64,000 nt of DNA, taken from Deltaproteobacteria bacterium (GTDB lineage Bacteria; Myxococcota; B64-G9). The stretch's first letter is position 1; the number at the start of each line of letters is the position of its first letter. The stretch is taken from NCBI GenBank assembly GCA_030622135.1, contig JAUXGL010000001.1, positions 601 to 64,600 of the forward strand, read 5' to 3'. The notes below the pieces were generated by a model. The model saw nothing but the letters and a program-made list of their open reading frames with translations. It was not told the origin of the DNA and did no database searches. Shown here piece after piece: positions 16,067 to 33,886 of this stretch. Both the position numbers and the translations under genes were made by a program.

Positions 16067-18130
16067 TCATTCTCGTCGTTTCAACATCCGACGACACAAT
16101 CCCAACAGGACGGCCAGGAGACCAGTTGAGAGCGGGTTTGTCGACGCGCTGCCATACAAACCGTTGTGGCACCCGCAGCCGCCACTAATGGCCGCCTCGG
16201 CATCCGCTGCACCGCCTCCGTCCTCGAAGTTTTCGGCGTTCGTGCCGGCGTCAAAGCCCCCATCATATCCGTCGTCGTATCCGCCGTCCGGGCCCGGGCA
16301 GGATTCCCTGGCCACGACCTTGACATTGTCGAAGGACGCGCCGTCGTTTCCCCACACATACAGCGCCACTGTTCCGTTTTGCAGACCATCATCCAGGACA
16401 GCTCCCGAGAATATGTCCGTGCTATCGAGCGTCACGGTATACCGGTTATCGACGACTTCTACGCGTAGCACCATGTCGGCGTTCTGGATATACCCTCCCG
16501 AGACCGCAGCCAGCGTCGTCTCCACACCGTCTGTTATTCTGAAGAGCTTGCGGAAGTTACGCTGTCGGTCGATGTCCACCTTGTAGTAGTTGGCCTCATC
16601 CTGGTACCGAAACAACACTCCCATGCCGTCGTCGTCGGTGGTTTGCATATGGACTGAAAAAACGTAATCGTCCCAGGAAAAGGCGGCCGCATCGCTCCAG
16701 TAGGCGAAGCTTCCCTGGCGATTCTCCGTGGCCGCTGTGTCCGGGCCGCAGATGTTCGAACTCTGCGCCAGCCGGCCGTCTGACCCGTGCCAGTCAGAAG
16801 GTGCCGAGATGGTACCCCGGTCCACCACCGTCCAGCCATCAAAGTCACCATCATCGAAATCATCGATTAAGAGCGCAGGTTCTGACATGAACATTGCCTC
16901 AGTGCCGGGCTCTATTACATTCGGAGGTGAAGCGCGATCGGTGACGTCGTTTACTGTCAGTACGTAGGTAACGCACTCGGTCAGTTGCGACGTGGTCAAG
17001 GATACCGTTCTCGGGTCCATTTCCAGAAAAGCAGCCAAGACCGTCACATCGCCACTGATGTTGTAGTTTGTGACCGTGGTTGAGTTGATTTCTTCCACTG
17101 GTTCGCTGAAGCGAACCTGGACATGGTTGTCGTCGACCACCAAGACCGAATCGATAGTAGGTGGCTGGCGGTCGTCGAAAATACCCAGGTTGTAGTATTC
17201 GAACCGGTGTTGAGGATCGGTGTTGTACTGAGCCAGATAGGGTGAATAGCTACTCGCCTCCAACCGGTCTTCCGCAGGATAAAAACGAATGATTCTCAAG
17301 AAGCTGTTGCCACCGTTAGCAATCATCTGGTAGTTGCACAGCATTTGATAGACAAGATTTCCTTTTACACCGGTATCCACCCGCCGTCCCTGCCCGTCGT
17401 TGAGCACGTGCCCGTTGAACACGAAGGCAGTGTTCGAATGGTTCTTCAAAAACTCTTCCCACATGTCGTCGCCGTTGTTCTCCCTGCCGTAGTCCGTCGG
17501 CACCCAGTTTTGTCCCAATCCGCTTTGGTGATGCAGATCGTCGCTATATACGTGGGTGTGGGTGACAACCATCAACCGGTGCCGGGGGTGATTCCGCGCA
17601 ACCTGGTTGGCCCACTCCAGAACCGTATCCCGCGGCCCGAATTCCAATGCAAAGACCAGCCAGTCGACAGAACCGGCATGGAACCGGTGATAGCAATTGT
17701 CCATTTTACCCGGCTCGAAAACATCTCCGAATGTGGGCAGGTTCTCGAACTTGCTAACCGGGAAGGTTTGGTTGAACTTCGTCGTGTCGTAGGGAGCGGA
17801 ACCCAGTCCGTCGTGGTTGCCCACCGCCAGAACGTAAGGCACGACCCCGTCCAAGAGGTCCAGGCTCGTCTTGGCGTTGGCCCAGCCGGGATCATCGTTG
17901 TCGTTGGTGATGTCGCCTTCGTGCAGGACGAAGGCGATGTTCAAGGAATCCTTATTATCCACAATCCACTGAGTTTGGATGTCAAAAAGCTCCGGCCAGC
18001 CCGCAAGGCCCGGCGTGGTGTACTTCTGGGTGTCCGGGAGCAGGATGATGCTGAACGGTTCCTGGGCCGACGCTTCCTGCGGCGCGAGAAGCCAGAAAAG
18101 CAGAATGACAATTTTCCCTCTTGAGTTCAC
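16067..18130 (-). CDS. Secreted calcineurin-like metallophosphoesterase with C-terminal lectin/hydrolase-like domain and MYXO-CTERM-like sorting tail
   Basis: 687 aa; signal peptide MNSRGKIVILLFWLLAPQEASA; metallophosphoesterase motifs (GDITND, GNHD, VVTHTH, GHV.ND); C-terminus GGCGCHNGLYGSASTNPLSTGLLAVLLGLCRRMLKRRE (Cys motif + hydrophobic helix + basic end). Confidence 0.75.
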   Translation of the reverse strand: MNSRGKIVILLFWLLAPQEASAQEPFSIILLPDTQKYTTPGLAGWPELFDIQTQWIVDNKDSLNIAFVLHEGDITNDNDDPGWANAKTSLDLLDGVVPYVLAVGNHDGLGSAPYDTTKFNQTFPVSKFENLPTFGDVFEPGKMDNCYHRFHAGSVDWLVFALEFGPRDTVLEWANQVARNHPRHRLMVVTHTHVYSDDLHHQSGLGQNWVPTDYGRENNGDDMWEEFLKNHSNTAFVFNGHVLNDGQGRRVDTGVKGNLVYQMLCNYQMIANGGNSFLRIIRFYPAEDRLEASSYSPYLAQYNTDPQHRFEYYNLGIFDDRQPPTIDSVLVVDDNHVQVRFSEPVEEINSTTVTNYNISGDVTVLAAFLEMDPRTVSLTTSQLTECVTYVLTVNDVTDRASPPNVIEPGTEAMFMSEPALLIDDFDDGDFDGWTVVDRGTISAPSDWHGSDGRLAQSSNICGPDTAATENRQGSFAYWSDAAAFSWDDYVFSVHMQTTDDDGMGVLFRYQDEANYYKVDIDRQRNFRKLFRITDGVETTLAAVSGGYIQNADMVLRVEVVDNRYTVTLDSTDIFSGAVLDDGLQNGTVALYVWGNDGASFDNVKVVARESCPGPDGGYDDGYDGGFDAGTNAENFEDGGGAADAEAAISGGCGCHNGLYGSASTNPLSTGLLAVLLGLCRRMLKRRE

Positions 18131-18318
18131 GAGCCGCGATCCTGACCTTTGCTACTGACAATCGGGGTTTGGCGAGATCTCCGTAAAATGAGACGATAGC
18201 ACAAACCCGGGTTTTTGGTGTATAAATCGGCTTCTTTGCCGATCCCGCAAGTGTCCGTTTTTGTGCCGTCCGATGCCCCGGGCGTTTCACCTGGTTTTCT
18301 TACTGCTGGGATTGCTGC

Positions 18319-19533
18319 TCAGTTTTCGATTCCGAAAAAGATAGGGAAGGGGATGGCCAGGGTGTTCTCGTCGACCGCCACCGTTTCGGTGCCGCGGTAG
18401 AGGAGGACGCCCATCCGGAAGCGGTTCTGGAGGGCTTCCCGGCAGGATCGCAGCCCGGCCAGATCTCCGGGCGCGAGTTCCTTTTTCCACAACATGTCGA
18501 TGCCCACCACCCGGTACTCGCGCTCGAGGAGAAAGTCTACCTCGCGTCCGGTGCGGGTGCGAAAGGACCACAGGTAGGTGTGCCAGGGAGCCACCGAGAG
18601 GATCTTGCGGATCTCCATGGCTGCCCAGGTTTTCACCAGCTTGTCGTCCTGGTTCGCCGGAGAGATTAGGCCGGCCAGCCCCGTGTCGGTGAGGTAGACC
18701 TTGGTGGTCCGGGCCAGGCGTTTTGTCGAATTCTTCTGGTAGGGCTCGAGCATGAACGCGTGGTGGGTCCGGGTCAGGATATCGAGGTAACGCCGCAGCG
18801 AGGTGTTGGCCAGACTCACTTCCCGGCCAAGCTCCAGGGCGTTGAGAACACAACCGGTGTGCCGGCCCAGGGCCGCCAGCAGGCGGTTGAACCCGGGTGG
18901 ATTGTCGAGGTTCGCGACCTGGGGCACTATCCGTTCTAAAAGATCTTGCCGGTAGGCTTCGAACCATGCGCGGCGCCTGGAGGGGGTTTTCAAGGCAGAC
19001 AACTCCGGCAACCCGCCCGCCAGGATCTGCCGCCGGATCTCGGAAGACCGGTCCCGGCAGGTGGCTGGAATCCGCGAAAGAACGTCCTTGGTCGAGGTGG
19101 CCTCGTAGAGATGTTCGATGACTGAGGAGGAAGGCTTCTCCGCCTGCTCCGCCCACGACAACCCCAGTAACTCAAAAACGGCCACACTTCCGCCCATGTC
19201 CTCCGGTATGTCGGTTAATCCGCCAGTCTCGACCGACGCAGTCAGCAGGGCCGAGCCCGGTCTATTCACCCGCGCTTTTATGGCCGCGACCAGGCCGGGG
19301 GCTCGCTGCGCCTCCAATATGGTAACCGCCTGGCCGGCGTTGACGAGGAAGCGGTGCGGGTTTGAAAGGGCCTCATCCAGCGTCGCCCGGTGATCGAGCG
19401 ACAAAGTTTTCCGCTTCCGGTCGAGGGAGCCGGCCAGCTGGGTCTTGCCGGCGCCTCGTGCGCCCAGCAGAAAAACAAGGGGAAAACGAGAAAGAGCGTC
19501 CTTGAGGATCGGCCGCAGATGTCTGGAAATCAT
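18319..19533 (-). CDS. AAA-domain ATPase with DUF4143-like C-terminal region
   Basis: 404 aa; Walker A GARGAGKTQ near N-terminus; overall AAA_14 + DUF4143-like layout judged from memory. Confidence 0.65.
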   Translation of the reverse strand: MISRHLRPILKDALSRFPLVFLLGARGAGKTQLAGSLDRKRKTLSLDHRATLDEALSNPHRFLVNAGQAVTILEAQRAPGLVAAIKARVNRPGSALLTASVETGGLTDIPEDMGGSVAVFELLGLSWAEQAEKPSSSVIEHLYEATSTKDVLSRIPATCRDRSSEIRRQILAGGLPELSALKTPSRRRAWFEAYRQDLLERIVPQVANLDNPPGFNRLLAALGRHTGCVLNALELGREVSLANTSLRRYLDILTRTHHAFMLEPYQKNSTKRLARTTKVYLTDTGLAGLISPANQDDKLVKTWAAMEIRKILSVAPWHTYLWSFRTRTGREVDFLLEREYRVVGIDMLWKKELAPGDLAGLRSCREALQNRFRMGVLLYRGTETVAVDENTLAIPFPIFFGIEN

Positions 19534-19547
19534 GGTGTATATTTGAC

Positions 19548-19571
19548 TATCAAGCGGTCAAATTGTCAAAA
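19548..19571. promoter_or_regulatory. Operator-like motif TTGAC-N9-GTCAAATTGT (copy 1)
   Basis: TTGACtatcaagcgGTCAAATTGT read directly; second near-identical unit at 19711-19734. Confidence 0.4.
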
Positions 19572-19734: not shown

Positions 19735-19842
19735 TATGAGATTCCTTTCTGCGCGGTTTCGCTTGACACCCCACGGGGCCATAGTCTATTTCTCGAACGC
19801 TTATCCTTATTTTTTCCTGCCTTTTTGAAAAGGAGATGGGAG

Positions 19843-21051
19843 ATGCAGTTCCAAGACGCCTTTATTCCCTACGGTTGTTACTGGTCCACGCCGTTTTCCA
19901 AGTGGCAGATGAGTTTCCAGACTCTCCAGCCGATTCCGTTTGCCGCCGAGATTGCCAAGCGCGCGCTCGAGGAGCGCAGCGTTCCGCTGGATGTCTTCGA
20001 CGGCGCGTGCCTGGGCCTGACCATCCCCTCCCATAGCTGTTTCTACGGGGGGCCCTGGCTGACCGGCCTGATCGGTCTGAAGGACGTTCCCGCGCCCATG
20101 TTGTCGCAGGCTTGTGCCACCGGCGTGCGTTGCATCGCCTACGCGGCCCAGGAAGTGACGAGCAAGAGCGCGGGCGTCTTTTTGGCGGTCACCGCCGACA
20201 AGTGCTCGAACGGACCCCACTTGGTCTACCCAAACCCGGAGGGCCAGGGCGGGACCCTGGACGCGGAGGACTGGGTGCTGGACAACTTCGGATTCGATCC
20301 CATCGGGCGCAAGGCCATGATCCAGACCGCCGAGAACGTGGCCAAGGAGCACGGCATCGAGCGCTCCATCCAGGACGAGGTGGCCCTGATGCGCTACGAG
20401 CAGTACAAAAACGCGCTCAAGGACGACCGGGCTTTCCAGAAGCGCTACATGATCCAGCCGATCGAGGTGAAGGACCAGCGGGGCCGCAAGGTCCTGGCCA
20501 CGCTGAGCACCGACGAGGGGATCTTCCCCACCACCACCGCGGGCTTGGCCAAGCTGAGGCCGGTGGTGGAAGGCGGCACGGTCACTTTCGGGACGCAGAC
20601 CTTCCCGGCCGACGGCAACGCCGGCCTGGTGGTCGCAACCCGGGAGAAGGCCAAGCAGCTCTCGAGGGATCCCAAGGTGGAGATCCAGGTGGTGGCCCAC
20701 GCCCAGGCCCGGGTGAAGCCGGCCTTCATGCCCATGGCCAACGGACCGGCGGTGAAACTGGTGCTGGAGCGCGCCGGTATCGGCGTCGGGGACATCAAGG
20801 CCATGACCTCCCACACCCCCTTTGCCGTCAACGACATCTTTTTATCCAAGGAGTACGGCATCGACCTCAAAGACATGAACCGTTACGGTTGCTCGCTGAT
20901 CTGGGGTCATCCGCAGGGCCCCACCGGCATGCGCGGGATCATCGAGCTGATCGAGGAGCTTACCATCCTGGGCGGCGGCTGGGGCCTGTTTACCGGCTGC
21001 GCCGCCGGGGATAGCTCCGCCGCCATGGTCATAAAGGTTGACGTGAGCTAG
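19843..21051 (+). CDS. Thiolase-family acetyl-CoA C-acyltransferase
   Basis: Preferred ATG 19843 (AAGGAG RBS 7 nt upstream; ORF track used an in-frame upstream TTG). Thiolase N and C domains; glycine-rich C-terminal motif GHPQGPTGMRG. Confidence 0.8.
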   Translation: MQFQDAFIPYGCYWSTPFSKWQMSFQTLQPIPFAAEIAKRALEERSVPLDVFDGACLGLTIPSHSCFYGGPWLTGLIGLKDVPAPMLSQACATGVRCIAYAAQEVTSKSAGVFLAVTADKCSNGPHLVYPNPEGQGGTLDAEDWVLDNFGFDPIGRKAMIQTAENVAKEHGIERSIQDEVALMRYEQYKNALKDDRAFQKRYMIQPIEVKDQRGRKVLATLSTDEGIFPTTTAGLAKLRPVVEGGTVTFGTQTFPADGNAGLVVATREKAKQLSRDPKVEIQVVAHAQARVKPAFMPMANGPAVKLVLERAGIGVGDIKAMTSHTPFAVNDIFLSKEYGIDLKDMNRYGCSLIWGHPQGPTGMRGIIELIEELTILGGGWGLFTGCAAGDSSAAMVIKVDVS

Positions 21052-21114
21052 TGCCCGTCTTAAAACTCCACTTTTCGAGGACGGCGTCGCGCCACACTTC
21101 TTAGGGAGCCCGAC

Positions 21115-21864
21115 ATGGATATCGGATTGAAAAATAAGGTGGTCTTGGTAACCGGCGGGAGCCGGGGGATTGGCGCCTCCATCTCACTGGAACTGGGTCG
21201 GCTGGGTGCCGACGTGGCCATGACCTGCCGCAGTCGGGTGGACGACGCCAACAAGGTCGCGGACAAGATCAAGGAAATGGGCAGCCGCGCCATGGTGATC
21301 CAGACGGACGCGTCCGTGTTCGTCGAGGCCGAGAAGACCGTAGACAGCGTATTGGCTGAGTTCGGGGATCTGCATGCCCTGGTGTGCAATGCCGGGGTCA
21401 CCTGGGACGGGGTGATCTGGAAGATGTCCGAGAAGCAGTGGGACACGGTGATCGACACGAACTTGAAGGGCTACTTCACTTACAACCGGGCGGCGGCCAA
21501 GATCTTCAAGGAGAAGAAGTACGGCAAGATCGTCAATCTCTCCTCCATAAACGGCCTGCGCGGCAAGTTCGCCCAGACCAACTACTCGGCTTCCAAGGGT
21601 GGGATCATCGCCATGAGCAAGGCCCTGGCCAAGGAGCTGGGCCGGTTCAACGTCAACGTAAACGTGGTGGCTCCCGGAATGGTCAAGACCGAGATGGCCG
21701 CGAACATACCGCCGGAGTTTTTAAACATCGCGGTGAATGAGACGGTGCTGGGAAGAATCGCCGAGTCGGCGGAGGTTGCCTGGGTGGTGGCTTTTCTTTG
21801 TTCGGATATGTCTCGGCACGTCACCGGCGAGGTCGTCAAAGTCGACGGCGGCCAGTACATCTGA
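21115..21864 (+). CDS. SDR-family oxidoreductase (FabG-like 3-oxoacyl/3-hydroxyacyl reductase)
   Basis: TGGSRGIG Rossmann motif, NAG, YSASKGG catalytic Tyr-x3-Lys. Confidence 0.85.
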   Translation: MDIGLKNKVVLVTGGSRGIGASISLELGRLGADVAMTCRSRVDDANKVADKIKEMGSRAMVIQTDASVFVEAEKTVDSVLAEFGDLHALVCNAGVTWDGVIWKMSEKQWDTVIDTNLKGYFTYNRAAAKIFKEKKYGKIVNLSSINGLRGKFAQTNYSASKGGIIAMSKALAKELGRFNVNVNVVAPGMVKTEMAANIPPEFLNIAVNETVLGRIAESAEVAWVVAFLCSDMSRHVTGEVVKVDGGQYI

Positions 21865-21878
21865 GAAGGGGACGCAAG

Positions 21879-23036
21879 ATGTCACGAATCGGAATCATTG
21901 GAATCGGGCATGGGAAGTTCGGGAGGCGCAGCGATGCCTCGGTGCAGGAGTTGGCCTTCGAGTCGTTTGCCGAGGCGCTTTCTGATGCGAAGATAGAGCG
22001 TAAGGACATCGATGCCACGGTGATCGGGGCGGTGCCGGAGTATCACAAGCAGCGGTCGCTGGCGGGGGCCATCCAGGAGTACCTGGAGATGACCCCCAAG
22101 CCCACCTGGCTGACCGAGGTGGCCTGTGCCTCGGGGTCGGCGGCCATCCGCACCGCTTGGATGGGGATCAAGTCGGGCCTGCACAAGGTGGTGTCGGTGA
22201 TAGGCTGCCAGAAGATGACCGAGCTGCAAACCCCGGAGATCCTGGCGCTCATGGGCCGGGTGGGTGAGGTGCAGTGGGAGTCGATTTTCGGTACCACCTT
22301 CCCGGGCTACTACGCCATGTTCGCCAACCGGCACATGCACGAGTTCGGCACCACCAAGGAGATGCTGGCCGCGGTGGCGGTGAAAAATCACTTCTACGGG
22401 GCCATGAACAAAAAGGCCATGTTCCAGAAGGAAGTGACCCTGGAAAAGTGCCTGGCCTCCGATCCGGTGGCCTCGCCCTTCGGGATCTTCGACTGCTGCG
22501 CCAACGCCGACGGGGCCGCCGCGGTCATCCTGGCCGAGGAGGAACGGGCCCGAGCCATTGCCGGGGACCGGGTCGTTTGGCTGGATGGGTTGGGCTGTGC
22601 CACCACCACCATGTCGGTTCTGCGCCGCCCCAGCCTTACGGGGATTTCCTCGGCCACCGAGGCGTCGAAGCAGGCCTACGAGATGGCCGGGGTGGGGCCC
22701 GCTGACATCAAGGTGGCCGACGTGCACGACTGCTTCACCATCGCCGAGATCATGGCCTACGAAGACCTGGGTTTTTGCAAGAAGGGACAGGGCGGCCACT
22801 TCATCGCCGAAAAGCAGTCCTACCTCGGTGGCCGGACGCCGGTGAACGTGGACGGGGGCCTGAAGTCCAAGGGACATCCCATCGGCACCACCGGCGTTTC
22901 CATGACCGTGGAGGTCGTAAAGCAACTGCGCGGCGACTGCGGGGAGCGTCAGGTCAAGGATGCCGACGTGGCGCTTACCCACAACGTCGGCGGGATCGGG
23001 CAGTACTGTTTCGTTCACATCTACAAAAAGGAGTAG
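21879..23036 (+). CDS. SCP-x/non-condensing thiolase-like protein (DUF35 partner type)
   Basis: Preferred ATG 21879 (MSRIGIIGIGHGKFGRRSD...), 15 nt after SDR stop; thiolase fold with the catalytic Cys region (CASGSAAIR), typical of SCP2-type thiolases paired with DUF35 proteins. Confidence 0.8.
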   Translation: MSRIGIIGIGHGKFGRRSDASVQELAFESFAEALSDAKIERKDIDATVIGAVPEYHKQRSLAGAIQEYLEMTPKPTWLTEVACASGSAAIRTAWMGIKSGLHKVVSVIGCQKMTELQTPEILALMGRVGEVQWESIFGTTFPGYYAMFANRHMHEFGTTKEMLAAVAVKNHFYGAMNKKAMFQKEVTLEKCLASDPVASPFGIFDCCANADGAAAVILAEEERARAIAGDRVVWLDGLGCATTTMSVLRRPSLTGISSATEASKQAYEMAGVGPADIKVADVHDCFTIAEIMAYEDLGFCKKGQGGHFIAEKQSYLGGRTPVNVDGGLKSKGHPIGTTGVSMTVEVVKQLRGDCGERQVKDADVALTHNVGGIGQYCFVHIYKKE

Positions 23037-23040
23037 GGCC

Positions 23041-23505
23041 GTGTTCGAGTGGTTTGGAAAGATCAATTTCACTCCCCATACCCGGGTGACCGAGTTTGCC
23101 GATCACCTCAAGGACGGTTACCTGATGGGCTCGAAGTGCCGGAAATGCGGCTTCGAGACTTATCCCCCGCGGGCCGACTGTCCCAAGTGCCTCAGCCCCG
23201 ACTTCGAGTTTAATGAAATCAGCGGCCAGGGCACCTTGCTAACCCACACGCAGATCACCGCCGCTCCTACCGGGTTCCAGGACATCGGTACCTACCGGGT
23301 AGGGCTTTTGGATCTGAAGGAGGGCGGCCGGCTGCTGGCCTGGATCGGCGAGAGCATCGGGGAGGACGAGGTGAAGATCGGCATGCAGCTCCAGGTGGTT
23401 CCGCGGATCTTCGAGGACACCCCGGACATCAAGGTTTATTACACCCTGGAGAAACCCGGGACGACCTGGAATAAGGCACCCAAGCCCGGCGCTGCAACCC
23501 CGTAG
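23041..23505 (+). CDS. DUF35 OB-fold/Zn-ribbon protein (BbsA/ChsH2-C-like thiolase partner)
   Basis: GTG 23041 with GGAG 7 nt upstream, 4 nt after thiolase stop; Zn ribbon CRKCG...CPKC followed by an OB-fold region. Confidence 0.7.
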   Translation: MFEWFGKINFTPHTRVTEFADHLKDGYLMGSKCRKCGFETYPPRADCPKCLSPDFEFNEISGQGTLLTHTQITAAPTGFQDIGTYRVGLLDLKEGGRLLAWIGESIGEDEVKIGMQLQVVPRIFEDTPDIKVYYTLEKPGTTWNKAPKPGAATP

Positions 23506-23581
23506 GGGCCGCTGAGTAGCACAGTTGGTTGAACCGGTTTTAAATTCCGTGCACCCAAGCAGGGTTAGCTGAGGTGAAGCC

Positions 23582-24340
23582 ATGACCATCGAAATGGAGA
23601 AAAAGAACGACGTCGCCTACATCACCCTGAGTTCCCCGCCGGTGAACATCATGACCGGCGAGACGATGAACGCCATTACCCAGGCGCTCTTGGAGATCGC
23701 CGGGGACCAGTCCCTAAAGGCAGTGGCTTTCAAGGCCGAGGGCAAGGCCTTCTCGGCCGGCGCCGACGTAAAAGAGCACCACCCGGACAAGGCCGCGGGG
23801 ATGATCGGCGCCTTCTCCCGGATGTTCACCGCCCTGGGTAACTGCGAGCTGCCGGTGGTCATGGCCGTTGGGGGCGCCGCCCTGGGCGCCGGCTTCGAGC
23901 TGGTCATGCTGGCGGATGTGCTCATCGCCAGTGACAGCGCCACCTTCGGTCAGCCGGAGATTCGCCTGGCCTTCTTCGCGCCCCTGGGGGTGGCTTACCT
24001 GCCCAAGTTGGTGGGCCCCAACCGGGCCATGGAGATCACCTGCTCGGGCCGGACGTACTCGGCGGAGAAGATGTACGAGTACGGCCTGGTTACCCGGGTG
24101 GTCAAGCCCGAGGAGATCGAGTCGGTCATGGAGGCTTACCTGGACGATATCCGCAAGGCCTCGCCCGCGGTCATACGCCTGAATACGCGGGTGCTGAAGA
24201 AAGTGCGCGATATGCCCTACGAGGAGGCCCACCAGCAGGCCGAAAAGACATTCCTGGAGGAGCTGATGAACCTCGATGATGTTCTCGAAGGGGTCAACTC
24301 TTTTTACGAGAAACGCAAGCCGGACTGGAAAAACAAGTAG
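23582..24340 (+). CDS. Enoyl-CoA hydratase/isomerase (crotonase) family protein
   Basis: 252 aa; crotonase-fold oxyanion-hole motifs (FSAGADV, AVGGAALGAGFELV). Confidence 0.85.
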   Translation: MTIEMEKKNDVAYITLSSPPVNIMTGETMNAITQALLEIAGDQSLKAVAFKAEGKAFSAGADVKEHHPDKAAGMIGAFSRMFTALGNCELPVVMAVGGAALGAGFELVMLADVLIASDSATFGQPEIRLAFFAPLGVAYLPKLVGPNRAMEITCSGRTYSAEKMYEYGLVTRVVKPEEIESVMEAYLDDIRKASPAVIRLNTRVLKKVRDMPYEEAHQQAEKTFLEELMNLDDVLEGVNSFYEKRKPDWKNK

Positions 24341-24349
24341 GGGGCGTCA

Positions 24350-25294
24350 ATGCGAATACTGGTGGTTGGTGCCGGAGCACTCGGGGGGTTGGTGGGCGCG
24401 CAGTTGACCGAAGCGGGGGAGGACGTCCTGCTCCTGGAGATCGATGAGAAGCGCGCGGACTTGCTCAACCGGGAAGGCCTCTACATAACCGAGGAAGGCA
24501 AGGGCGAGCGGAAGATCTCCGTGAGAGTCATCACCACCATGGAGGGAATCGATCCGGTCGATCTGGTCTTCGTCTCGGTGAAGACCTACCAGACCGAGGT
24601 GGCCGTCAAAGGGGTTCTGCCGGTGATTGGGGACGACACCCGGGTGTTGTCCATGCAGAACGGCATCGGCAACACCGACGTGATGGTCGGGATTCTGGGC
24701 AGGGAAAAGGTGCTCTCGGGAATAACCTACCACAGCATCCAGCACACCGGCCCCAACAAGCTGCGCTACCGGGTGGGGATCAAGCCCATCCAGATCGCTT
24801 CGTGTGAGGGCAAGTCCGGCCCCGATGTGGAGAAGATCGGCGAGGTGTTTCGCAAGGCCGGTCTGAAAACCGACGTGGTCCGCAACATCGATCACGTGAT
24901 CTGGCAGAAGCTGTTGCATAACGCCGTGGTCAACCCGGTGTCGGCCCTCACCGGCCAAAACTGCAATCAGCTGCTCGAAGACCAGGATCTCCAGGCGCTC
25001 ATGCGCGAAGTCTGCATGGAGATAATCGCGGTCATGCGGGCCCGTGGCGTGCCCATCATCAATAAAGATGACCCCTACGCGCCGGTGATCGACTCGCAAA
25101 AGGCCCTGGGAGAGAACCGGCCCTCCATGTGGCAGGATCTGGACCGGGGGCTGAAGACCGAAGTGGACGCCCTAAACGGCGCCATCGTGGCGGAGGCCGA
25201 GCGCCACGGGCTCAAGGCCCCGCTGAACTGGATGCTGGTTCGCCTGGTGCACTCGGCCGAGCGCCGGAACCAGAACAAGGAGAGTGGAGAATGA
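24350..25294 (+). CDS. Ketopantoate-reductase (PanE/ApbA) family NAD(P)-dependent oxidoreductase
   Basis: N-terminal MRILVVGAGALGG Rossmann; ApbA N and C domains. Confidence 0.75.
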   Translation: MRILVVGAGALGGLVGAQLTEAGEDVLLLEIDEKRADLLNREGLYITEEGKGERKISVRVITTMEGIDPVDLVFVSVKTYQTEVAVKGVLPVIGDDTRVLSMQNGIGNTDVMVGILGREKVLSGITYHSIQHTGPNKLRYRVGIKPIQIASCEGKSGPDVEKIGEVFRKAGLKTDVVRNIDHVIWQKLLHNAVVNPVSALTGQNCNQLLEDQDLQALMREVCMEIIAVMRARGVPIINKDDPYAPVIDSQKALGENRPSMWQDLDRGLKTEVDALNGAIVAEAERHGLKAPLNWMLVRLVHSAERRNQNKESGE

Positions 25295-26352
25295 CGACGA
25301 TAACCGGTTGGATGATGAAGGAGCCCCAAAAGCCGTTCGAAAAGGAATCCTTCGAGGCCCCCGTTCTAAAGGAGGGCGAGGTTTTGGTGGAGGTGGCCGG
25401 CTGCGGGGTCTGCCACACCGATATCTCGTTTTCTTACCTGGGCGTCAAGACCCGCAAGGAGCCGCCGCTGGTCCTGGGTCACGAGATCTCCGGCAAGGTT
25501 GTGGAGATCGCGGGCGGCGCGGACGCGTCCTTGCAGGGCAAGAACGTCCTGGTTCCCGCGGTGCTGCCCTGCGGCGTCTGCTCCATGTGCAGAAACGACC
25601 GCCGGCGGATCTGCACGGCGCAGATCATGCCCGGCAACGATTGCCACGGTGGCTTCGCCACCCACGTGGTTGTCCCGGCCAAGTTTATCTGCCCGATTCC
25701 CGACGAGGTTCTCAAGAGCCACGAGCTCTGGGAGCTGTCCATCGTCTCCGATGCCGTGACCACTCCCTTCCAGGCGGTCAAGTGCTCCCGGTTGAACGCG
25801 GGCGATCTGGCCATTTGCATCGGCGTGGGCGGGATCGGCGTCCACGGCGTCCAGGTAGCCAAGGGCGCCGGCGCCAAGGTCATTGCCCTGGACGTCGACG
25901 ACCAAAAGCTGGAGGTGGCCCGGCAGGCCGGAGCGGATGAAGTCATCAACATAAAGGGGCTGTCCGGCAAGGAGATCAAGGGCAAGGTGAAGGCGGTCGG
26001 AAAGAGCCTGGGCGCGCCCAAGGCGTTGTGGAAGATCTTCGAGACCTCCGGCACCCGGTCGGGGCAGCAGACCGCCTTCGGCCTGATGGGCTTTGGCGCC
26101 ACCCTGGCCATCGTCGGGTTCACCATGGACAAGGTGGAGGTTCGGCTCTCCAACCTGATGGCCTTCGACGCCGAGATGTTCGGCATCTGGGGCTGCGACC
26201 CGGTACTCTACCCCGAGTGCCTCGACTGGCTGGCCAAGGGCAAGATCCAGGTCAAGCCCTACGTGGAGAAGCACTCCCTCGACGAGATCAACGAAGTCTT
26301 CGAAGCCGCCCACCACGGTAAGCTGCAAAGACGCGCCGTGCTGGTCCCGTAG
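25291..26352 (+). CDS. Zn-dependent alcohol dehydrogenase (MDR family)
   Basis: Preferred ATG 25291 overlapping upstream stop (ATGA); GHEISG, catalytic Zn Cys (CGVCHTD), structural Zn CxxCxxC, GVGGIG NAD motif. Confidence 0.85.
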   Translation: MTTITGWMMKEPQKPFEKESFEAPVLKEGEVLVEVAGCGVCHTDISFSYLGVKTRKEPPLVLGHEISGKVVEIAGGADASLQGKNVLVPAVLPCGVCSMCRNDRRRICTAQIMPGNDCHGGFATHVVVPAKFICPIPDEVLKSHELWELSIVSDAVTTPFQAVKCSRLNAGDLAICIGVGGIGVHGVQVAKGAGAKVIALDVDDQKLEVARQAGADEVINIKGLSGKEIKGKVKAVGKSLGAPKALWKIFETSGTRSGQQTAFGLMGFGATLAIVGFTMDKVEVRLSNLMAFDAEMFGIWGCDPVLYPECLDWLAKGKIQVKPYVEKHSLDEINEVFEAAHHGKLQRRAVLVP

Positions 26353-26528
26353 GCGTCTGCGGCCATGCCAGGTTTCTTTTTCGAGCGGCAGTGGTTCTGA
26401 CCCATCCCCTCCAATCAAGCCTTTAAAATAATGAGACAAGCCCGGGCCCGACCGGGTCCTCCATGCGGGCACTTCACACGGCTCCGGCCGTGCAAGTACT
26501 CGTTGTTGAGAGGAAAGGAGGGACTTCA

Positions 26529-27980
26529 ATGGCCCAGAGACTTGTCCCGTTCGCGCTCTTGTTGGTTGCCCTGACCCCCGCCTGCCAGGACTACGTCTAC
26601 GAAGAGCTCCGCGGCACGGTGATCCGGGAGGTGCGGACGTTCGAAGATGTCGATGTCGCCGCGGAGGCGGACATTCTCTTCGTGATAGACAACTCCGGTT
26701 CCATGGCGGGTGAGCAGCGTCAACTTGCCGAGTCGTTTAAAATATTAACCGATGGTTTGGAGAAGAAGTTTGGAGACAAGTATCACATTGCCATCGTCAC
26801 AACCGGCATGGAGTCGGATTACTGCCCCACGGGCGAAAACGGTCGTTTCCAGGATCGAATCTGCAGGAACGTGGGGACGGACACGCTTCCCGAATACGTT
26901 TGCGAAACCCCGGAGCCGGGTGTCGATTGCCGCGTGGTGGATAGCAGCAACAGGTCGGTGTGTCTATACAACTCCGGCGAACAGAAAGGAACCTTGTTTG
27001 TGGGGGTTACGGGATGTGGTTTCGAGAGAGGGTTTGCTCCACTCCATGATGCACTTGTGAAACTTCGAGACTCGTACAATAAGGATTTCCTGCGAAAAGA
27101 CGCAACTCTGGTCGTGGTCGTCATCTCGGACGAGGACGACTGCGGTGGTGTGGGCGACGTGTACGAGTTTTCCAATGACGGCGGAAACGTCTGCTACTTT
27201 GCCGCCAAGGGTGTTGGACCCGAAGGGGAGACCTTCTACGTTGACCAGGGTGGTCGGCAGTGGCCTTACGAGCTCACTTCGGTGCAGCACTACTACGATT
27301 TCCTCATCGATGATGTGAAGGGCGGCAATAATGGAAAGGTCAAGTTCGCCGCCATTGTCGGTGTCAAAGACATAAACGATCCGTCGACAACCACCATCGA
27401 ATACCAGCAATACCAAGTGGGGGATCGATACCGCTGGGAAGTCGTGGACGCCTGTACCACGCCGAACTGCACGGGGGAACATTGCTCTGCCAAGCCCGGC
27501 ACCCGGTACATCGAGATGGCTAAGAAGTTCGGCAAGAACGGTTTTCTCGACACCATCTGTCAGGATGACTTTTCACACACCTTGGAGGAACTGGTCAAGT
27601 TCATTCCTTGCACTCGTGCGTTCAAACTGAAAGAGCCCCCTCTCGACCCCGCGCTGGCGGCCATTCTGATCGACGGCGAGGAGGTTCCACCTTATACGTG
27701 TTCGATCGAGGGACGCTTGGAGGTTTGCGAGGGAGAGGGATCTGCTTGTCCGCAGGGCAGCGAGTGTGTGCAGACCTGGGTGTACTGCGACCCGGACGAT
27801 CCCGATCCGCATCCCGAGTGTTTGTGCGATGCCAACGACGACCGGCCCTACCCGGAATGCGCTCCCCTCAATTTCACCGGCGCCACGGGCGGCATCATCG
27901 TATTTGCGGATCACTACGATCCCTGCAAGCTCATCGACGAGGGTGTGATCCACATCGAGTTTATTTACGTGATTCCGTAG
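26529..27980 (+). CDS. Secreted (lipo)protein with von Willebrand factor A (MIDAS DxSGS) domain
   Basis: Preferred ATG 26529 (GGAGG RBS); signal MAQRLVPFALLLVALTPAC; LFVIDNSGSMAGEQ MIDAS motif; Cys-rich C-terminal part. Confidence 0.7.
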   Translation: MAQRLVPFALLLVALTPACQDYVYEELRGTVIREVRTFEDVDVAAEADILFVIDNSGSMAGEQRQLAESFKILTDGLEKKFGDKYHIAIVTTGMESDYCPTGENGRFQDRICRNVGTDTLPEYVCETPEPGVDCRVVDSSNRSVCLYNSGEQKGTLFVGVTGCGFERGFAPLHDALVKLRDSYNKDFLRKDATLVVVVISDEDDCGGVGDVYEFSNDGGNVCYFAAKGVGPEGETFYVDQGGRQWPYELTSVQHYYDFLIDDVKGGNNGKVKFAAIVGVKDINDPSTTTIEYQQYQVGDRYRWEVVDACTTPNCTGEHCSAKPGTRYIEMAKKFGKNGFLDTICQDDFSHTLEELVKFIPCTRAFKLKEPPLDPALAAILIDGEEVPPYTCSIEGRLEVCEGEGSACPQGSECVQTWVYCDPDDPDPHPECLCDANDDRPYPECAPLNFTGATGGIIVFADHYDPCKLIDEGVIHIEFIYVIP

Positions 27981-28088
27981 AGAGGCTTTCCTTGCTTCCC
28001 GCGCGTTGTGCTAAATGGCGCCGCTCCGGTCAGTACCGAGTCCGAGGACCTTTCGTAGTTGCCCGAGAATGGCCTGCAGGTCCTTAGA

Positions 28089-30116
28089 TTATTTGTGAAT
28101 GAACGGGGCGGGGGAACGGGGGCCTTTGGTTAGGAAGTTTTGGATGCCGATCTTGGTGTCCTCGGTTTTTACGCATTCTCCGAACATTTCGGATTCGAAG
28201 TGGAGACCCTCCTCCAGGGGCTTGCGGCAGCCTTCGATTATGGTGCGGCAAAGAATTCGGTCGATGGCTTGGCTCAGGTGGCCCAGCTCCAGGTTGGGGA
28301 GCTTGTCGGGGGTTTCGATTGGGTCCTTGGATATGCCTTTGAGCTCGACCTGGCCTGAGGCGGCTTTGCCGGCGAGCTCGATGGCGTAGTCGATCAGCTT
28401 GTCGCCGTCCACCTCCTCGGAAAAGAGGCCCAGCTTGACGCCTTGCTCGGAGGAGATGGGCTTGCCGGTGCGGAGCAGCTCCTGGGCTTTCTGAAGGCCG
28501 ATCCAGCGGGGAAGGCGCTGGGTGCCGCCTGCGCCGGGGATTATGCCCAGGTTTACCTCGGGCTGACCGGCGGCCATTTTCATGCCTTTCTTGACCAGGA
28601 TGGTGGAGCAGCACATGGCCAGCTCGATGCCGCCGCCCAAAGCCAGGCCGTTCAGCGCGGCGATTACCGGCTTGCCCAGGTTTTCAACGGCCAGGCCGGC
28701 TTCCTTGGAACGTTCGCCGCTGTCGATGCCCTCCTGGGGGGTCTTGATCCCGGCCAGGAAGTTGATGTCGGCGCCGGAGACGAAGGCTTTGGTGCCGTAG
28801 CCGGAGAGGACCACCGCCTCGATCTTGGAGTCGTTCTTGATCTCGGAGAAGACTTGCTTCAACTGGGCAAAGACTTCGGGGTTGAGGGCGTTTAGTACTT
28901 TCGGGCGGCGGATGCGCACCCAGGCGACGTCGCCCACATCGTGGCGGCGGACGTGCATGATCTCGAAGGGCTGGTCGGCGGCGGCCTGCTTCTTTATGCA
29001 TTCGGGGACCGGGAAGCTGTCGTGGGTCTTGCTATAATCCTCGACCAGCTTGAGGGATTCTTTCGCCCCGAGCTTGTTCATGAGCCGGAAGGGTGGCTGG
29101 ATGTCCAACGCGATCTCCAGGGCCATCTCCAGGTCGGCTACGCTTACGATCCCCGAGTCGATGATCATCCCGGCCAGGCCGAAGTAGGCGCCCAGCAGCG
29201 TATCGGCGATCCTCTTCTCCTGGTCCGCTTGAAGCTCGACTTTTTCGCCGCGGCCGGCCACCTCCCACGGCTTTCCGGACGCAACCGCGTCCTTGAGCAG
29301 TTGGGGGGAGCGGAACCAGGGGATGTTGTAGCGTTGGCCCTCCATCTCGAGCCCGTGGTCGGTCAGCGGGTTGCCGCCGGTTAGGTTCATGGCGGTGAAG
29401 GAGCCGACGGCCAGGCCCAGCGTGCGGGTTCCCACCGCGTCGACCTCCTTGACTGTCCCCAGGCCTTCCTCTACGGCCAGAGCGTTGGCCAGAAACAGGC
29501 CCTCGAAGATGGGGTCGACGGCGTAGCCGTAGCGGCTGCCCACCCGGATGGGCACCTTGCCGATGCGCTCATACAGGCTCATCATGCTGTGGGTGAGCTT
29601 GGGGTCGGTGTCCTTGCCGGGGACTATCTCGATCATGGGGTTGCGCTCGGCCGGGAAGAAGTAGTGGGTTACCATGGTGCGGTTTTTCTTCGAGAGCGGC
29701 TCGAAGATGACCTCCGGCTCCAGGTGGGACGAGTTGGAGGTCAGAATCGCCGTTTCCGGACAGAGCTTCTCCACCTGCAAAAAGATCTTCCGCTTGAGGT
29801 TTAGATCCTCGGAGGCTGCCTCCACCACCAGGTCGGCGCCGCGGAGTTGCTCGTAGTCGCTGGTGAAGATGGTGTTCTCGATCATGGCCGCGCCCATCTC
29901 CGGCCTAAACGCCCCGGCCTTGACTCCCTTCTCCACCTTCTTCTTGAGCTTGGCCGCGCCTTTTTCAAGCGCCTCCGCCACCACGTCCACCACCACCACG
30001 TTGACGCCGTAGGGGTGGAAGACCTTGGTGAAGTGCAGGGCGATGTCCGGTCCGATCTGGCCGGAGCCGATGACGCCGATCTTCTTGATGGTAAGTCCCC
30101 GGAATTCGAAAGCCAT
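28089..30116 (-). CDS. Bifunctional 3-hydroxyacyl-CoA dehydrogenase / enoyl-CoA hydratase (HCDH N-terminal, crotonase C-terminal)
   Basis: 675 aa; N-term IGVIGSGQIGPDIA NAD-binding plus 3HCDH C domain; C-terminal crotonase fold (GGGIELAMCC). Confidence 0.85.
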   Translation of the reverse strand: MAFEFRGLTIKKIGVIGSGQIGPDIALHFTKVFHPYGVNVVVVDVVAEALEKGAAKLKKKVEKGVKAGAFRPEMGAAMIENTIFTSDYEQLRGADLVVEAASEDLNLKRKIFLQVEKLCPETAILTSNSSHLEPEVIFEPLSKKNRTMVTHYFFPAERNPMIEIVPGKDTDPKLTHSMMSLYERIGKVPIRVGSRYGYAVDPIFEGLFLANALAVEEGLGTVKEVDAVGTRTLGLAVGSFTAMNLTGGNPLTDHGLEMEGQRYNIPWFRSPQLLKDAVASGKPWEVAGRGEKVELQADQEKRIADTLLGAYFGLAGMIIDSGIVSVADLEMALEIALDIQPPFRLMNKLGAKESLKLVEDYSKTHDSFPVPECIKKQAAADQPFEIMHVRRHDVGDVAWVRIRRPKVLNALNPEVFAQLKQVFSEIKNDSKIEAVVLSGYGTKAFVSGADINFLAGIKTPQEGIDSGERSKEAGLAVENLGKPVIAALNGLALGGGIELAMCCSTILVKKGMKMAAGQPEVNLGIIPGAGGTQRLPRWIGLQKAQELLRTGKPISSEQGVKLGLFSEEVDGDKLIDYAIELAGKAASGQVELKGISKDPIETPDKLPNLELGHLSQAIDRILCRTIIEGCRKPLEEGLHFESEMFGECVKTEDTKIGIQNFLTKGPRSPAPFIHK

Positions 30117-30195
30117 GTCAAACCTCCATCGTTATGGGTCCAGAGTACGGAAAGTGAACCTGGCGGTTCGGCTGGTACCTCGGGGGGGGGAGATC

Positions 30196-31164: not shown

Positions 31165-31336
31165 ACCTCTTTAGATTGGAATGTTTGGCGCTCACTTCGA
31201 GCTTACCCGACACTGTGTAAGAAATGGTGCCCGGTTGTCAAGACCGGTCAGCGCTGTCAGCGTTGGGTGGGGTTGACATCTTTCCTGAATGCTATAGGGT
31301 GTCCGTCACTCTCAATACGACAATCAGGAGATCGCC

Positions 31337-33886
31337 GTGAACCAGAGGATGATATTCCTGTTTTTGGTTGGCGTGCCCGTCTGTCTGTTTCCTCTGGCTG
31401 TGGTCGCGCAGAATTGCCCCAACCCCGTCACCATCGCCTGCGGGGACACGCCCTCCGGCAGCAACCAAAACGGTAACGACGGTCACGACAACTACGGCTG
31501 TGCGGAGTTCTCCTGGGATTTGACCGCGGCGGAGATTTATTACCGGCTCACCATTACCGAGGAGGAATTCCTCTGGATCAACCTGGAGCCGACCTCGGTG
31601 TGGGATCTGGCCCTGATTGTTCTTTCGGAGAGCGGAGGCGACTGCGGCGCGGTCCCCGTACTCTGCGTGGACGACATGCTTGACGATGATCCGGAATTTA
31701 CCTTTGTTACGCTACCGGCCGGGACCTACTACATCGTGGTGGATGGTTATAACGATGGTTACGGCACCTACGATTTGACCGTGATTTGCGAGGAGTGTAC
31801 CGACGCGGACGGGGACACCTATCCCGGCCTGGGGGTGAGCACCTGCTTTTCGGGCAACGACTGCTGTGACACCGGCGCCGAGGTTTCTTCGGGTTGCACC
31901 GTCGGAAACGCCGCAGACATCCATCCCGGAGCCCAGGAGATATGCGGCAACGGCATCGACAACGACTGCAGCGGCCATGACGATCCTTGCCCGAGCTGCG
32001 GTGCCGACGAGAATATCGCCTGCGCCGACACCAAAACGGTGGATACGACCGGCGGGGCGTCGAACTTGAGTGACTACTGCCACGGGTTGGGCGCCCACTC
32101 CGGAACCGACTGGAGCGGCCCCGAGCACATCTTTTCGTTTACGCCTACGAGCGACGCCGGGGTGGTCTTTGCGATCGACTCGACCGCCGCGCTGGACATG
32201 TTTGCCCTTCCCGACTATGGCGATCCCGCTGTCTGTAACATGGACACATGTCTTTCCATCGGGGGGAGCGGCTCGGGTTTCGCTCTCGGGAACGACCCGG
32301 TGGTCTTCTACGCCGAGACGGGGGAGACCTACTTTATTTCCGTGGATGGCAACGAGGGCGCGGCCGGTTCGTTTAACTACGACGTGGAGTGCCGGACCGA
32401 GTTTTGCGTTTCCGATGCCGACATCGCGTGCAAGCATCGCGTGTCCGGCGACACCACCGGTAAGGACAACAACGTGAGCGTGTACAAAGGCTGGGGCCGG
32501 GAGTTTCCGGCACCCGAGTATGTGTACGCGCTGAAGACCGACCTGGACGCCGACGTGGTTGTCAATCTGGACATGGAGACGGGCATCGACCTGGCCATTT
32601 TCGTGATCGAGGACAGCGGAGATGGTTGCAGCCCCGGCGATGTCCTGGCCTCCAGCGACATCGACAACGTGCGCGACAACGATTGGACCGAGTACGTTTC
32701 GTTCTCCAGCATCGGCGGGGTCGACTACTACGTGGTGGTGGATGGGCGGCCGGCCGTCGGTTATGGCGCCTTCGACCTGGACGTGACCTGCTCGGTCGAG
32801 TGCGGGGAGGGGTTCGACGACTGCGGGTTCGGTTTTTGCTTGGACGTAAGCAGCGACGTCGACAACTGCGGCGCGTGCGACAACGTCTGTGATCTGCCCG
32901 GCGTCGACCAGCACGAGTGCTTGGCCGGCGCCTGCACGGTGGTTTCCTGTGACGTCGACTACGACGACTGCGATGCAACCGACGCCAACGGTTGCGAGGC
33001 CGATCTGCTCGCCGACCGCGCCCACTGCGGCGTTTGCAACAACGGCTGCGGCGCCGACCAGATCTGCGCCGCCGGTGTCTGCCAGGACTGCGGGTTGGGC
33101 GAGATCGTTTGCGGCAACACCTGCATCGATACCGACACCGATCCGGATCACTGCGGCGTCTGCGACAACGTCTGCGACCTGCCCAATGTCGACCAGCACG
33201 GCTGCGTATCCGGCGCCTGCACGGTGGTTAGCTGCGACGCGGACTTCGATGACTGCGACTCGGACGTTTCCAACGGCTGCGAGGTGGACCTGCTTACCAG
33301 CGACGTTCACTGCGGCGGTTGCAACCAGGCCTGCGACACCGCGCAGGGGGAGGACTGCTGCGGTGGAACCTGTGCGGATCTGGATTCCAGCACCGTCCAC
33401 TGCGGCGCCTGCAACAACGCCTGCGCGGCCGGCAAGTCGTGCTGCGACGGCACCTGCGCCGATCTGAACGACGACGTTGGCCACTGTGGCGCCTGCGGCA
33501 ACGCCTGCGCGACCGGCGAGGCGTGCTGTGACGGCACCTGCGCCGATCTGAACGACGACGACGGCCATTGCGGCGCCTGCGGAAATGCCTGCGTGGCCGG
33601 ACCGGGTTGCCTGAACGGGACTTGCTGCGCCGATGCGGATTCGGATGACCACTATGACCAGGGCTGCGGCGGAGACGACTGCGATGACACCGTCGCAGCG
33701 ATCCACCCGGGCGCCGAGGAGATCTGCAACAAAGTCGACGACGACTGTAACGGAACCATCGACGACGGGGACGTCTGCAAGCGCGATGGGGGCTGCGGAT
33801 GCATGGCGATCGACGGCACCCCGGCATCCGGTTTGTTCCTGCTCCTTCTAGTCATCGGCCTGGTACGTTTCCGCGGGAGCCGATGA
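31337..33886 (+). CDS. Large secreted protein: signal peptide, pre-peptidase-C-terminal (PPC)-like domains, Cys-rich CxxCxNxC repeat arrays, MYXO-CTERM-like tail
   Basis: 849 aa; signal MNQRMIFLFLVGVPVCLFPLAVVAQ; PPC-like YY..VDGY..G.G.YDL.V units; MopE-like metal-binding motifs (DADGDTYPG..., CDDTVAAIHPGAEEICNKVDDDCNG); about 8 repeats HCGxCxNxC; C-terminus GGCGCMAIDGTPASGLFLLLLVIGLVRFRGSR. Confidence 0.75.
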   Translation: MNQRMIFLFLVGVPVCLFPLAVVAQNCPNPVTIACGDTPSGSNQNGNDGHDNYGCAEFSWDLTAAEIYYRLTITEEEFLWINLEPTSVWDLALIVLSESGGDCGAVPVLCVDDMLDDDPEFTFVTLPAGTYYIVVDGYNDGYGTYDLTVICEECTDADGDTYPGLGVSTCFSGNDCCDTGAEVSSGCTVGNAADIHPGAQEICGNGIDNDCSGHDDPCPSCGADENIACADTKTVDTTGGASNLSDYCHGLGAHSGTDWSGPEHIFSFTPTSDAGVVFAIDSTAALDMFALPDYGDPAVCNMDTCLSIGGSGSGFALGNDPVVFYAETGETYFISVDGNEGAAGSFNYDVECRTEFCVSDADIACKHRVSGDTTGKDNNVSVYKGWGREFPAPEYVYALKTDLDADVVVNLDMETGIDLAIFVIEDSGDGCSPGDVLASSDIDNVRDNDWTEYVSFSSIGGVDYYVVVDGRPAVGYGAFDLDVTCSVECGEGFDDCGFGFCLDVSSDVDNCGACDNVCDLPGVDQHECLAGACTVVSCDVDYDDCDATDANGCEADLLADRAHCGVCNNGCGADQICAAGVCQDCGLGEIVCGNTCIDTDTDPDHCGVCDNVCDLPNVDQHGCVSGACTVVSCDADFDDCDSDVSNGCEVDLLTSDVHCGGCNQACDTAQGEDCCGGTCADLDSSTVHCGACNNACAAGKSCCDGTCADLNDDVGHCGACGNACATGEACCDGTCADLNDDDGHCGACGNACVAGPGCLNGTCCADADSDDHYDQGCGGDDCDDTVAAIHPGAEEICNKVDDDCNGTIDDGDVCKRDGGCGCMAIDGTPASGLFLLLLVIGLVRFRGSR

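Follow-up and report, generated by a model that had tools for sequence, protein, structure and literature searches.

Two secreted proteins of an uncultured bacterium with C-terminal tails of probable MYXO-CTERM type

Among the closest known relatives of the protein tails considered here is the MYXO-CTERM signal (TIGR03901.2/TIGR03382) of Myxococcus xanthus TraA, a Sec-exported protein processed by the myxosortase MrtX. Cys-dependent C-terminal cleavage and surface anchoring have been demonstrated for TraA and MXAN_4924; cleavage by MrtX depends on the Cys residues, and a model that involves a type II secretion system (T2SS) has been set out (PMC11980579). The hallmarks of the signal are a GCGC motif and a transmembrane helix without charged or Pro residues. 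The region is short and divergent, so that curatorial review is needed and scores from hidden Markov models (HMMs) are not decisive on their own; accurate counting needs custom HMMs that are specific to a lineage (10.1101/2023.06.07.544157). In curated genomes there are 3–73 MYXO-CTERM clients per proteome, several per genome sharing only the tail. Hosts are expected in Myxococcota (Myxococcia, Polyangia) or Bradymonadales and should encode a myxosortase, MrtX, MrtC or MrtP, for which NF040914 is the core model and NF040674 the model specific to MrtP. The JDVT-CTERM signal and its protease MrtJ (NF033191/NF033192) are also related. This signal has a single Cys, with an invariant DP in the helix nine residues after it, and is found in Beta- and Gammaproteobacteria, with one client per genome, encoded beside mrtJ. 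Here we describe two secreted proteins, encoded in a stretch of 64,000 nucleotides of contig JAUXGL010000001.1 (the window, 64 kb), whose tails resemble these signals, and most closely that of TraA.

Protein 1 (687 aa; C-terminus ...ISGGCGCHNGLYGSASTNPLSTGLLAVLLGLCRRMLKRRE) is encoded at 16067..18130 on the minus strand, and protein 2 (849 aa, of which 83 are Cys; C-terminus ...KRDGGCGCMAIDGTPASGLFLLLLVIGLVRFRGSR) at 31337..33886 on the plus strand. Both open reading frames (ORFs) were recovered with the C-termini that an earlier, sequence-only reading had quoted. Both proteins have a putative signal peptide, and both have a GGCGC motif 32–38 residues before the C-terminus, followed in the same order by a Pro-containing spacer, a Leu-rich helix and a basic cluster, with the stop codon directly after. 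In tail 1 these elements are GGCGC (16169..16183, minus strand; residues 650–654, with Cys652 and Cys654), a long spacer HNGLYGSASTNP that includes an insertion of about five residues, NGLYG (16133..16168; residues 655–666), a hydrophobic helix LSTGLLAVLLGLC (16094..16132; residues 667–679) and a predicted cytoplasmic basic cluster RRMLKRRE (16070..16093; residues 680–687). In tail 2 they are GGCGC (33788..33802, plus strand; residues 818–822, with Cys820 and Cys822), the spacer MAIDGTPASG (33803..33832; residues 823–832), the helix LFLLLLVIGLV (33833..33865; residues 833–843) and the basic cluster RFRGSR (33866..33883; residues 844–849). Neither helix contains a charged or Pro residue.

The common tag that the sequence-only reading had noticed is borne out by the distribution of the motif. 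Both GGCGC and GCGC occur just twice, in the two tails, whether the roughly 50 predicted proteins or the whole six-frame translation of the window is considered. From composition, 0.006 occurrences of GGCGC are expected in the 18.9k residues of predicted proteins, and the expectation for at least two such motifs falling in the tail zone is about 6e-8. When the two tails are aligned to each other, 5 of 2000 shuffles reach the observed score. The uniqueness of GGCGC to the two tails, together with this alignment, shows that the shared feature is real and not due to chance. Chance resemblance of low-complexity sequence in a GC-rich genome could be argued from the abundance of Gly, Ala and Arg codons in such genomes, and from the lack of significance of the alignment between tail 1 and the TraA tail, whose score is reached by 383 of 2000 shuffles. 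It is effectively refuted by the counts above, by the coincidence of motif position, helix and basic cluster in both tails, and by the insertion-tolerant test described below, in which none of 1500 shuffles reached the score of tail 1. A recent duplication of the tail module was also considered and rejected, because the tail-coding DNA segments are alike only over the 15 nt of the motif. The window holds two unrelated tagged clients. A lineage-adapted tail HMM, applied to every six-frame ORF end in the window, found no third tagged protein, and there is none in the approximately 68 kb scanned.

We conclude that both proteins probably carry a MYXO-CTERM-type sorting domain and are clients of a myxosortase, a glutamic intramembrane protease from the CPBP family whose gene would lie elsewhere in the genome; we put the probability of this at roughly 0.77. 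Several observations weigh against it, and they should be set out before the evidence in its favour is considered further. An NCBIfam scan of the full-length proteins matched no sorting-signal model. Short models are lost in long proteins, and the tails were therefore scanned in isolation. Even so, neither of them reaches the TIGR03901.2 cutoff of 20 bits, and the profile search to which the sequence-only reading had pointed did not decide the matter by itself: tail 2 scores 11.9–12.0 bits and tail 1 only 6.8 bits (E = 8.7). The basic cluster of tail 2, RFRGSR, is weaker than RLRRSR, the consensus of its orthologues. On the lineage-adapted HMM, tail 1 when left intact reaches 4.4 bits, a value matched by about 3% of its own shuffles, and P0052, the only tagged homologue of tail 1 besides a 99% copy, fails the models as well. 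The cognate protease proposed in the sequence-only reading was not found: no CPBP (PF02517) gene is present in the approximately 88 kb that were covered, which include, with precomputed Pfam annotation, the whole window and about 3.7 kb to its left, and a scan of the window and several fetched loci for the CPBP motifs (EExxxR...FxxxH...HxxxN/D) gave no candidate myxosortase. There are no T2SS genes in the window. Finally, no close orthologue was found among GTDB species representatives, and placement in the Myxococcota is not established.

The profile scores need to be read against a calibration. The experimentally validated TraA tail (sequence from the legend to Fig. 1 of PMC11980579) scores 20.6 bits on TIGR03901.2, and 32 of 42 tails (39 homologue tails, TraA and both window tails) match this model at E <= 0.05. 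On the second model, TIGR03382.1, isolated tail 2 is borderline, at 15.7–16.7 bits against a cutoff of 15.85, and isolated tail 1 has no match. Tail 2 was also compared directly with TraA. The alignment score is 61, compared with 22.3 +/- 4.6 for shuffles, none of which (0 of 2000) reach 61, and tail 2 pairs residue for residue with TPAGS..FLLLLAAGL of TraA, its helix LFLLLLVIGLV falling on FLLLLAAGL. Tail 1 resembles TraA in the length of its spacer (15 residues, compared with 13). The architecture is common to all three, with a Cys motif, Pro-containing spacer, Leu-rich helix and basic cluster at the end of a Sec-exported protein. There are also differences. TraA has CC where the window tails have GCGC; the basic cluster is mixed Arg/Lys in tail 1 (RRMLKRRE) and weak in tail 2 (RFRGSR); both window tails lie under the TIGR03901.2 cutoff, and the sequence available yielded no MrtX. 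The host also differs, being apparently an uncultured organism with an anaerobic type of metabolism rather than a cultured myxobacterium.

Further evidence comes from the relatives of protein 2. Besides a 100% copy on JGI contigs (P0121), there are eight orthologues (P0122–P0129), with 56–65% identity. The proteins of the window are present at NCBI and in JGI samples 3300040951, 3300040952 and 3300042087. All eight keep the tail, in the form KRDKGCGC-x6-PASG-LFLLLL-x2-GL-x-R-x-RRSR, and G-C-x-C is invariant across 9 orthologues of protein 2, as is P-A-S in the spacer among orthologues. On TIGR03901.2, all eight orthologue tails score 29.5–38.1 bits, above the value for TraA. Where their consensus reads AATx, tail 2 reads MAID, and its basic cluster is RFRGSR and not RLRRSR. 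Since the tails of all its orthologues score so well, tail 2 is a low-scoring allele of a domain that in its orthologues is clearly MYXO-CTERM. Less closely related homologues of protein 2 are often from metagenome-assembled genomes (MAGs) with Myxococcota names, and some are already labelled as 'MYXO-CTERM domain-containing protein'.

These scores bear directly on a second possible origin of the tails, in which they would belong not to MYXO-CTERM proper but to another Cys-containing system from this superfamily: one that resembles JDVT-CTERM/MrtJ, or an undescribed Mrt subtype with its own signal. Such a system would account for the failure of both window tails to reach the TIGR03901.2 cutoff and for the unusually long spacer of tail 1 (98th percentile). 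It would also suit a lineage that is not among the GTDB representatives and whose gene content suggests an anaerobic lifestyle unlike that of cultured myxobacteria, given that signal and enzyme co-evolve by lineage, as noted by Haft (10.1101/2023.06.07.544157). JDVT-CTERM has in common with the window tails a Cys-containing tripartite C-terminal signal, and its enzyme is a CPBP-family protease of the same superfamily. However, JDVT-CTERM proper is excluded: the window tails have two Cys residues and not one, their helices have no DP motif, NF033191 does not match them, and there are two clients within 18 kb, with no adjacent CPBP gene, rather than one client per genome. Any 'new' signal would moreover be continuous with MYXO-CTERM, because the orthologues of protein 2 match TIGR03901.2 so strongly. 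We regard a separate system as unlikely.

The tails were also used as a query in the reciprocal direction. A profile of 35 positions, made from window-type tails (alignment A3), was searched exhaustively against 1.84 billion cluster representatives, and gave 13 matches at E <= 1e-3. Ten of these are new proteins, and their N-terminal architectures are unrelated, including β-helix, lectin-like, Pro-rich and Cys-rich proteins. The match is at the extreme C-terminus in nine of the ten and internal in the other. All ten retrieved tails pass TIGR03901.2, with 26.2–37.6 bits. The same profile gave nothing at E <= 10 against a word-indexed database of 5.8 billion proteins, a search that we judge to have been wasted. 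The orthologue and retrieved tails align with the C-termini of the models for two myxosortase-dependent hydrolases, a phytase-like phosphatase (NF045638) and an M36 metallopeptidase (NF038112). Protein 1 has the same general layout as these enzymes, a secreted hydrolase followed by a flexible linker and a MYXO-CTERM-like tail. The likeness is confined to the tail, the catalytic and lectin-like domains of protein 1 being unrelated.

Two of the loci seen in this work have features of their own. In the metagenomic protein P0251 the MYXO-CTERM motif lies in the middle of the protein, at residues 528–557 of 1010 (TIGR03901.2, 27.8 bits), with about 450 residues after it; an internal motif has a precedent in the atypical M. 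xanthus protein MXAN_5598 (PMC11980579). In the MAG 'HK-STAS-MYXO-43' (locus L021, 8552-12936, plus strand) two ORFs that overlap or adjoin each other (719 and 830 aa) have near-identical tails (GADKGCGCGTSGG[AS]GAWLAL.LLAALRRRRR). This points to a tagged gene that was duplicated locally, or else to a frameshift.

The conservation of the tails also bears on a simpler function, as plain C-terminal anchors that are neither cleaved nor lipidated. In that case the proteins would not leave the inner membrane, on whose periplasmic side they would lie, and the role of GGCGC would be structural or redox-related. This would be compatible with the failure of intact tail 1 on all profile models, and with the fact that a processing enzyme was not found in the available sequence, processing of the MYXO-CTERM kind being proposed here by analogy. 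On the other hand, orthologues of protein 2 that are just 56–65% identical overall all share an unchanged pattern of G-C-x-C, P-x-S and helix. This pattern recurs on proteins with unrelated domains, and it corresponds to a signal that has been shown to be cleaved (PMC11980579). Simple anchoring is consequently considered very unlikely.

A further system with which the tails invite comparison is GlyGly-CTERM/rhombosortase (TIGR03501/TIGR03902; for example VesB of Vibrio cholerae), in which a tripartite signal is carried by T2SS-dependent surface hydrolases. There is a rhomboid protease gene in the window (9030-10181, minus strand), about 6 kb from protein 1, whose product has an N-terminal TFIIB-type zinc-ribbon and could be imagined as a rhombosortase acting on the two tails. 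A GG does precede the helix and basic cluster in both of them, and some of the orthologue tails give matches to TIGR03501 slightly below threshold (14.5–14.7 bits; cutoff 15.5). However, the rhomboid scores 32.7 bits on TIGR03902, far under the cutoff of 84, and TIGR03501 does not match the window tails even at E <= 10; these two results led us to reject the idea, which we rate as highly improbable. In addition, GlyGly-CTERM has no conserved Cys, the GG and the helix in the window tails are set apart by the Cys motif and a spacer of 9–15 residues, and the invariant feature of the orthologues is G-C-x-C and not GG.

Tail 1 requires separate treatment. Protein 1 has 578 homologues, of which the best 120 were surveyed. 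Most of these have no such tail, and include proteins of Verrucomicrobiota, with Ig-like C-termini, and enzymes of Bacillota. Among the 120, the combination of Cys motif, helix and basic cluster is found only in the 99% copy (P0001) and in P0052, which is 46% identical to protein 1 and comes from a 'Deltaproteobacteria bacterium' MAG. Since the tag is absent from most homologues, it is a lineage-specific module added to an enzyme that is otherwise widespread, a behaviour typical of sorting signals.

The HMM alignment indicates that tail 1 fails every profile on account of the insertion of about five residues in its spacer. The lineage-adapted HMM was built from 24 tails, excluding tail 1 and P0052, and gives 55.4 bits for tail 2. 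With NGLYG removed, tail 1 scores 27.6 bits. Choosing a deletion after the event is a form of selection, and the controls were therefore given equal freedom, each being scored as the best of any 5- or 7-residue deletion. None of the 1500 shuffles of tail 1 reaches 27.6 bits, the maximum being 19.1. Among 2175 real six-frame ORF tails, the only ones above 15 bits are other tails with GCxC, a helix and RRRR, from loci of Myxococcota-type MAGs. The distance from the last Cys to the hydrophobic run is 15 residues in tail 1, which is at the 98th percentile of 47 reference tails (median 9, range 2–16), and 9 in tail 2. This makes tail 1 a variant with a long spacer, close to the limit of the known range. 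Because the curated HMMs fail, its membership is argued only from architecture and from the insertion-tolerant test, and is less secure than that of tail 2. Taken with the orthologues of protein 2 and the reciprocal search, this test nevertheless supports the identification of the tag as a MYXO-CTERM-type sorting signal, which the sequence-only reading had proposed.

On the basis of the working model for M. xanthus TraA (PMC11980579), we hypothesise the following pathway, every step of which is transferred to this organism by analogy. The proteins would be exported by Sec, using the N-terminal signal peptide. The C-terminal helix would then anchor them transiently in the inner membrane, with the basic cluster in the cytoplasm, and a Cys of the GCGC motif would be lipidated by an acyltransferase. 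Next, a myxosortase would cut just distal to the lipidated Cys, removing the spacer, helix and basic tail. Finally, export by a T2SS would leave the mature protein anchored by its lipid at the cell surface. The lack of a CPBP gene near the clients is expected in such a scheme, as a myxosortase is a housekeeping enzyme that, unlike MrtJ, serves dozens of clients; its gene is not expected to be near them (10.1101/2023.06.07.544157). The two cargoes are plausible as typical clients, one being a hydrolase that has a lectin-like domain and the other a large adhesin-like protein rich in Cys.

The domains of the two proteins have been further analysed. Protein 1 starts with a putative Sec signal peptide, VNSRGKIVILLFWLLAPQEASA (18065..18130, minus strand; ending ...LLFWLLAPQEASA, then QEP), in which a basic n-region, a hydrophobic core and an A-S-A site can be recognised by inspection. 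The following domain, approximately residues 25–320, is of the phosphoesterase (calcineurin-like) type. Pfam PF00149 has no match to the window copy, and the metallophosphoesterase label comes from homologues with 45–52% identity that are annotated with PF00149, together with visible GD, GNHD and GH motifs. Next there is an Ig-like Big_5 domain at residues 328–401 (Pfam, 19.6 bits, under the cutoff), and a lectin-like domain of the DUF1080/3-keto-disaccharide-hydrolase type at residues 423–605 (PF06439, 26.8 bits). An acidic Gly/Asp-rich linker, predicted to be disordered, occupies residues 606–649, between the lectin-like domain and the sorting tail. There is a weak PDB match to a levanase entry, 4AZZ.

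Protein 2 likewise begins with a putative Sec signal peptide, VNQRMIFLFLVGVPVCLFPLAVVA (31337..31408, plus strand; ending ...CLFPLAVVA, then QNC), assigned by inspection. The upstream GTG start that this implies is backed by the consensus of the orthologues, MSKTKIFLLL...AQNCPNP. The protein is predicted to consist of PPC-type domains and Stig1/MXAN_6577-like Cys-rich repeats, followed by the sorting tail, with profile scores of 27.7 bits for PF04151, 63.1 bits for PF04885 and 74.5 bits for NF041328, the last being under its cutoff of 100.

The window also encodes secreted proteins and lipoproteins with no tag, at 440-6140 (minus strand), 26463-27980 (plus), 40494-41795 (plus) and 48762-49232 (minus). 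Among them are two large lipoproteins of Big_1/invasin-like type that have an LSAGC lipobox, a Cys-rich protein of 505 aa that faintly resembles CglD/CglB/MIDAS adhesins, and a 433-aa protein with 47 Cys residues. Several secreted Cys-rich proteins thus lack the tag, and not every exported Cys-rich protein is a client. A candidate for a third tagged protein, running across the left edge of the window, was rejected; the protein is truncated at the edge and has no tag. A 331-aa Cys-rich lipoprotein is encoded at 3092-4087 (minus strand) of locus L025, the gene continuing that at window positions 1-378 (minus strand). Its C-terminus is hydrophobic and Trp-rich (FLWVVSGLLRFLWVWWLIGV), followed by basic residues, and has no GCxC motif. 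In a contig from another sample the gene is called at 274 aa, and the end could be a frameshift or a variable end.

The remaining genes say something about the organism. A catabolic cluster at 19825-30116 and 34643-40321 encodes thiolases, ChsH2-like OB/zinc-ribbon proteins, a cyclohexa-1,5-dienecarbonyl-CoA hydratase-like ECH, a 3-hydroxyacyl-CoA dehydrogenase, a benzoyl-CoA-reductase/HGD-type dehydratase of the BcrC/BadD/HgdB kind accompanied by a BcrAD/BadFG activase, an ADP-forming acyl-CoA synthetase and an AMP-dependent ligase. An aldehyde:ferredoxin oxidoreductase and a ferredoxin are encoded at 12435-14884. The catabolic gene content suggests an anaerobic lifestyle, something uncommon among cultured myxobacteria. 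Synteny of the cluster extends to GCA_975959825.1, where the locus of the protein 2 orthologue P0127 is syntenic with the window; this is the one orthologue locus that was examined. A canonical GrpE-DnaK pair lies just to the left of the window. Two Schlafen/AlbA_2 genes with HATPase_c_4 (about 51272-53442 and 57858-60028) have as neighbours a ParA/CbiA-like ATPase in one case and a DUF4062 gene in the other. The segment at 56-60 kb has the lowest G+C content of the window, 0.566, and the Schlafen/AlbA_2 region could be a defence-type island. The crude ORF caller chose the opposite strand here.

The sequence-only reading took the tails as a hint of Myxococcota. The hint is consistent with the named relatives of both clients, which are from Myxococcota or 'Deltaproteobacteria' MAGs, and a host in the Myxococcota is suggested by the sequence data, its placement remaining unproven. 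A PilZ-DnaK fusion (44415-46778, plus strand; 787 aa) has an N-terminal PilZ-type domain that passes TIGR02266, which we take to be a Myxococcus paralogous domain family (86.6 bits; cutoff 68.7); its DnaK/HSP70 ATPase part scores 577 bits on the DnaK model, under the equivalog cutoff. A scan of contigs with the orthologue alignment found only distant relatives, with at most 34% identity over long segments, and so does not fix the taxonomy. Neither rRNA nor tRNA was found by Rfam and tRNA scans of the window. Several proteins of the window had no exact match, owing to strain variation or to differently called start codons.

It is worth adding a more speculative possibility, which we consider rather doubtful. 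The host may be from an uncultured lineage of anaerobic type, related to Myxococcota and absent from the GTDB representatives searched, in which the MYXO-CTERM signals have drifted below the curated cutoffs, by a long spacer in one tail and a weak basic cluster in the other. The reason could be co-evolution with a myxosortase of a subtype other than MrtX, MrtC or MrtP. If this is true, standard annotation would miss most of the surface proteome of the lineage.

The sorting system described here is already known, and what is new is the pair of client proteins. By analogy with TraA, both are now marked as probable lipid-anchored proteins at the cell surface of an uncultured bacterium, and their tails serve as a taxonomic pointer towards Myxococcota. 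They also provide examples of how curated MYXO-CTERM HMMs under-call. An orthologous tail can score 12 bits when its sister alleles score 30–38, and an insertion of five residues in the spacer is enough to abolish detection. Our knowledge of the sorting system itself is unchanged by this; it is for the annotation of MAGs that the under-calling is useful to know.

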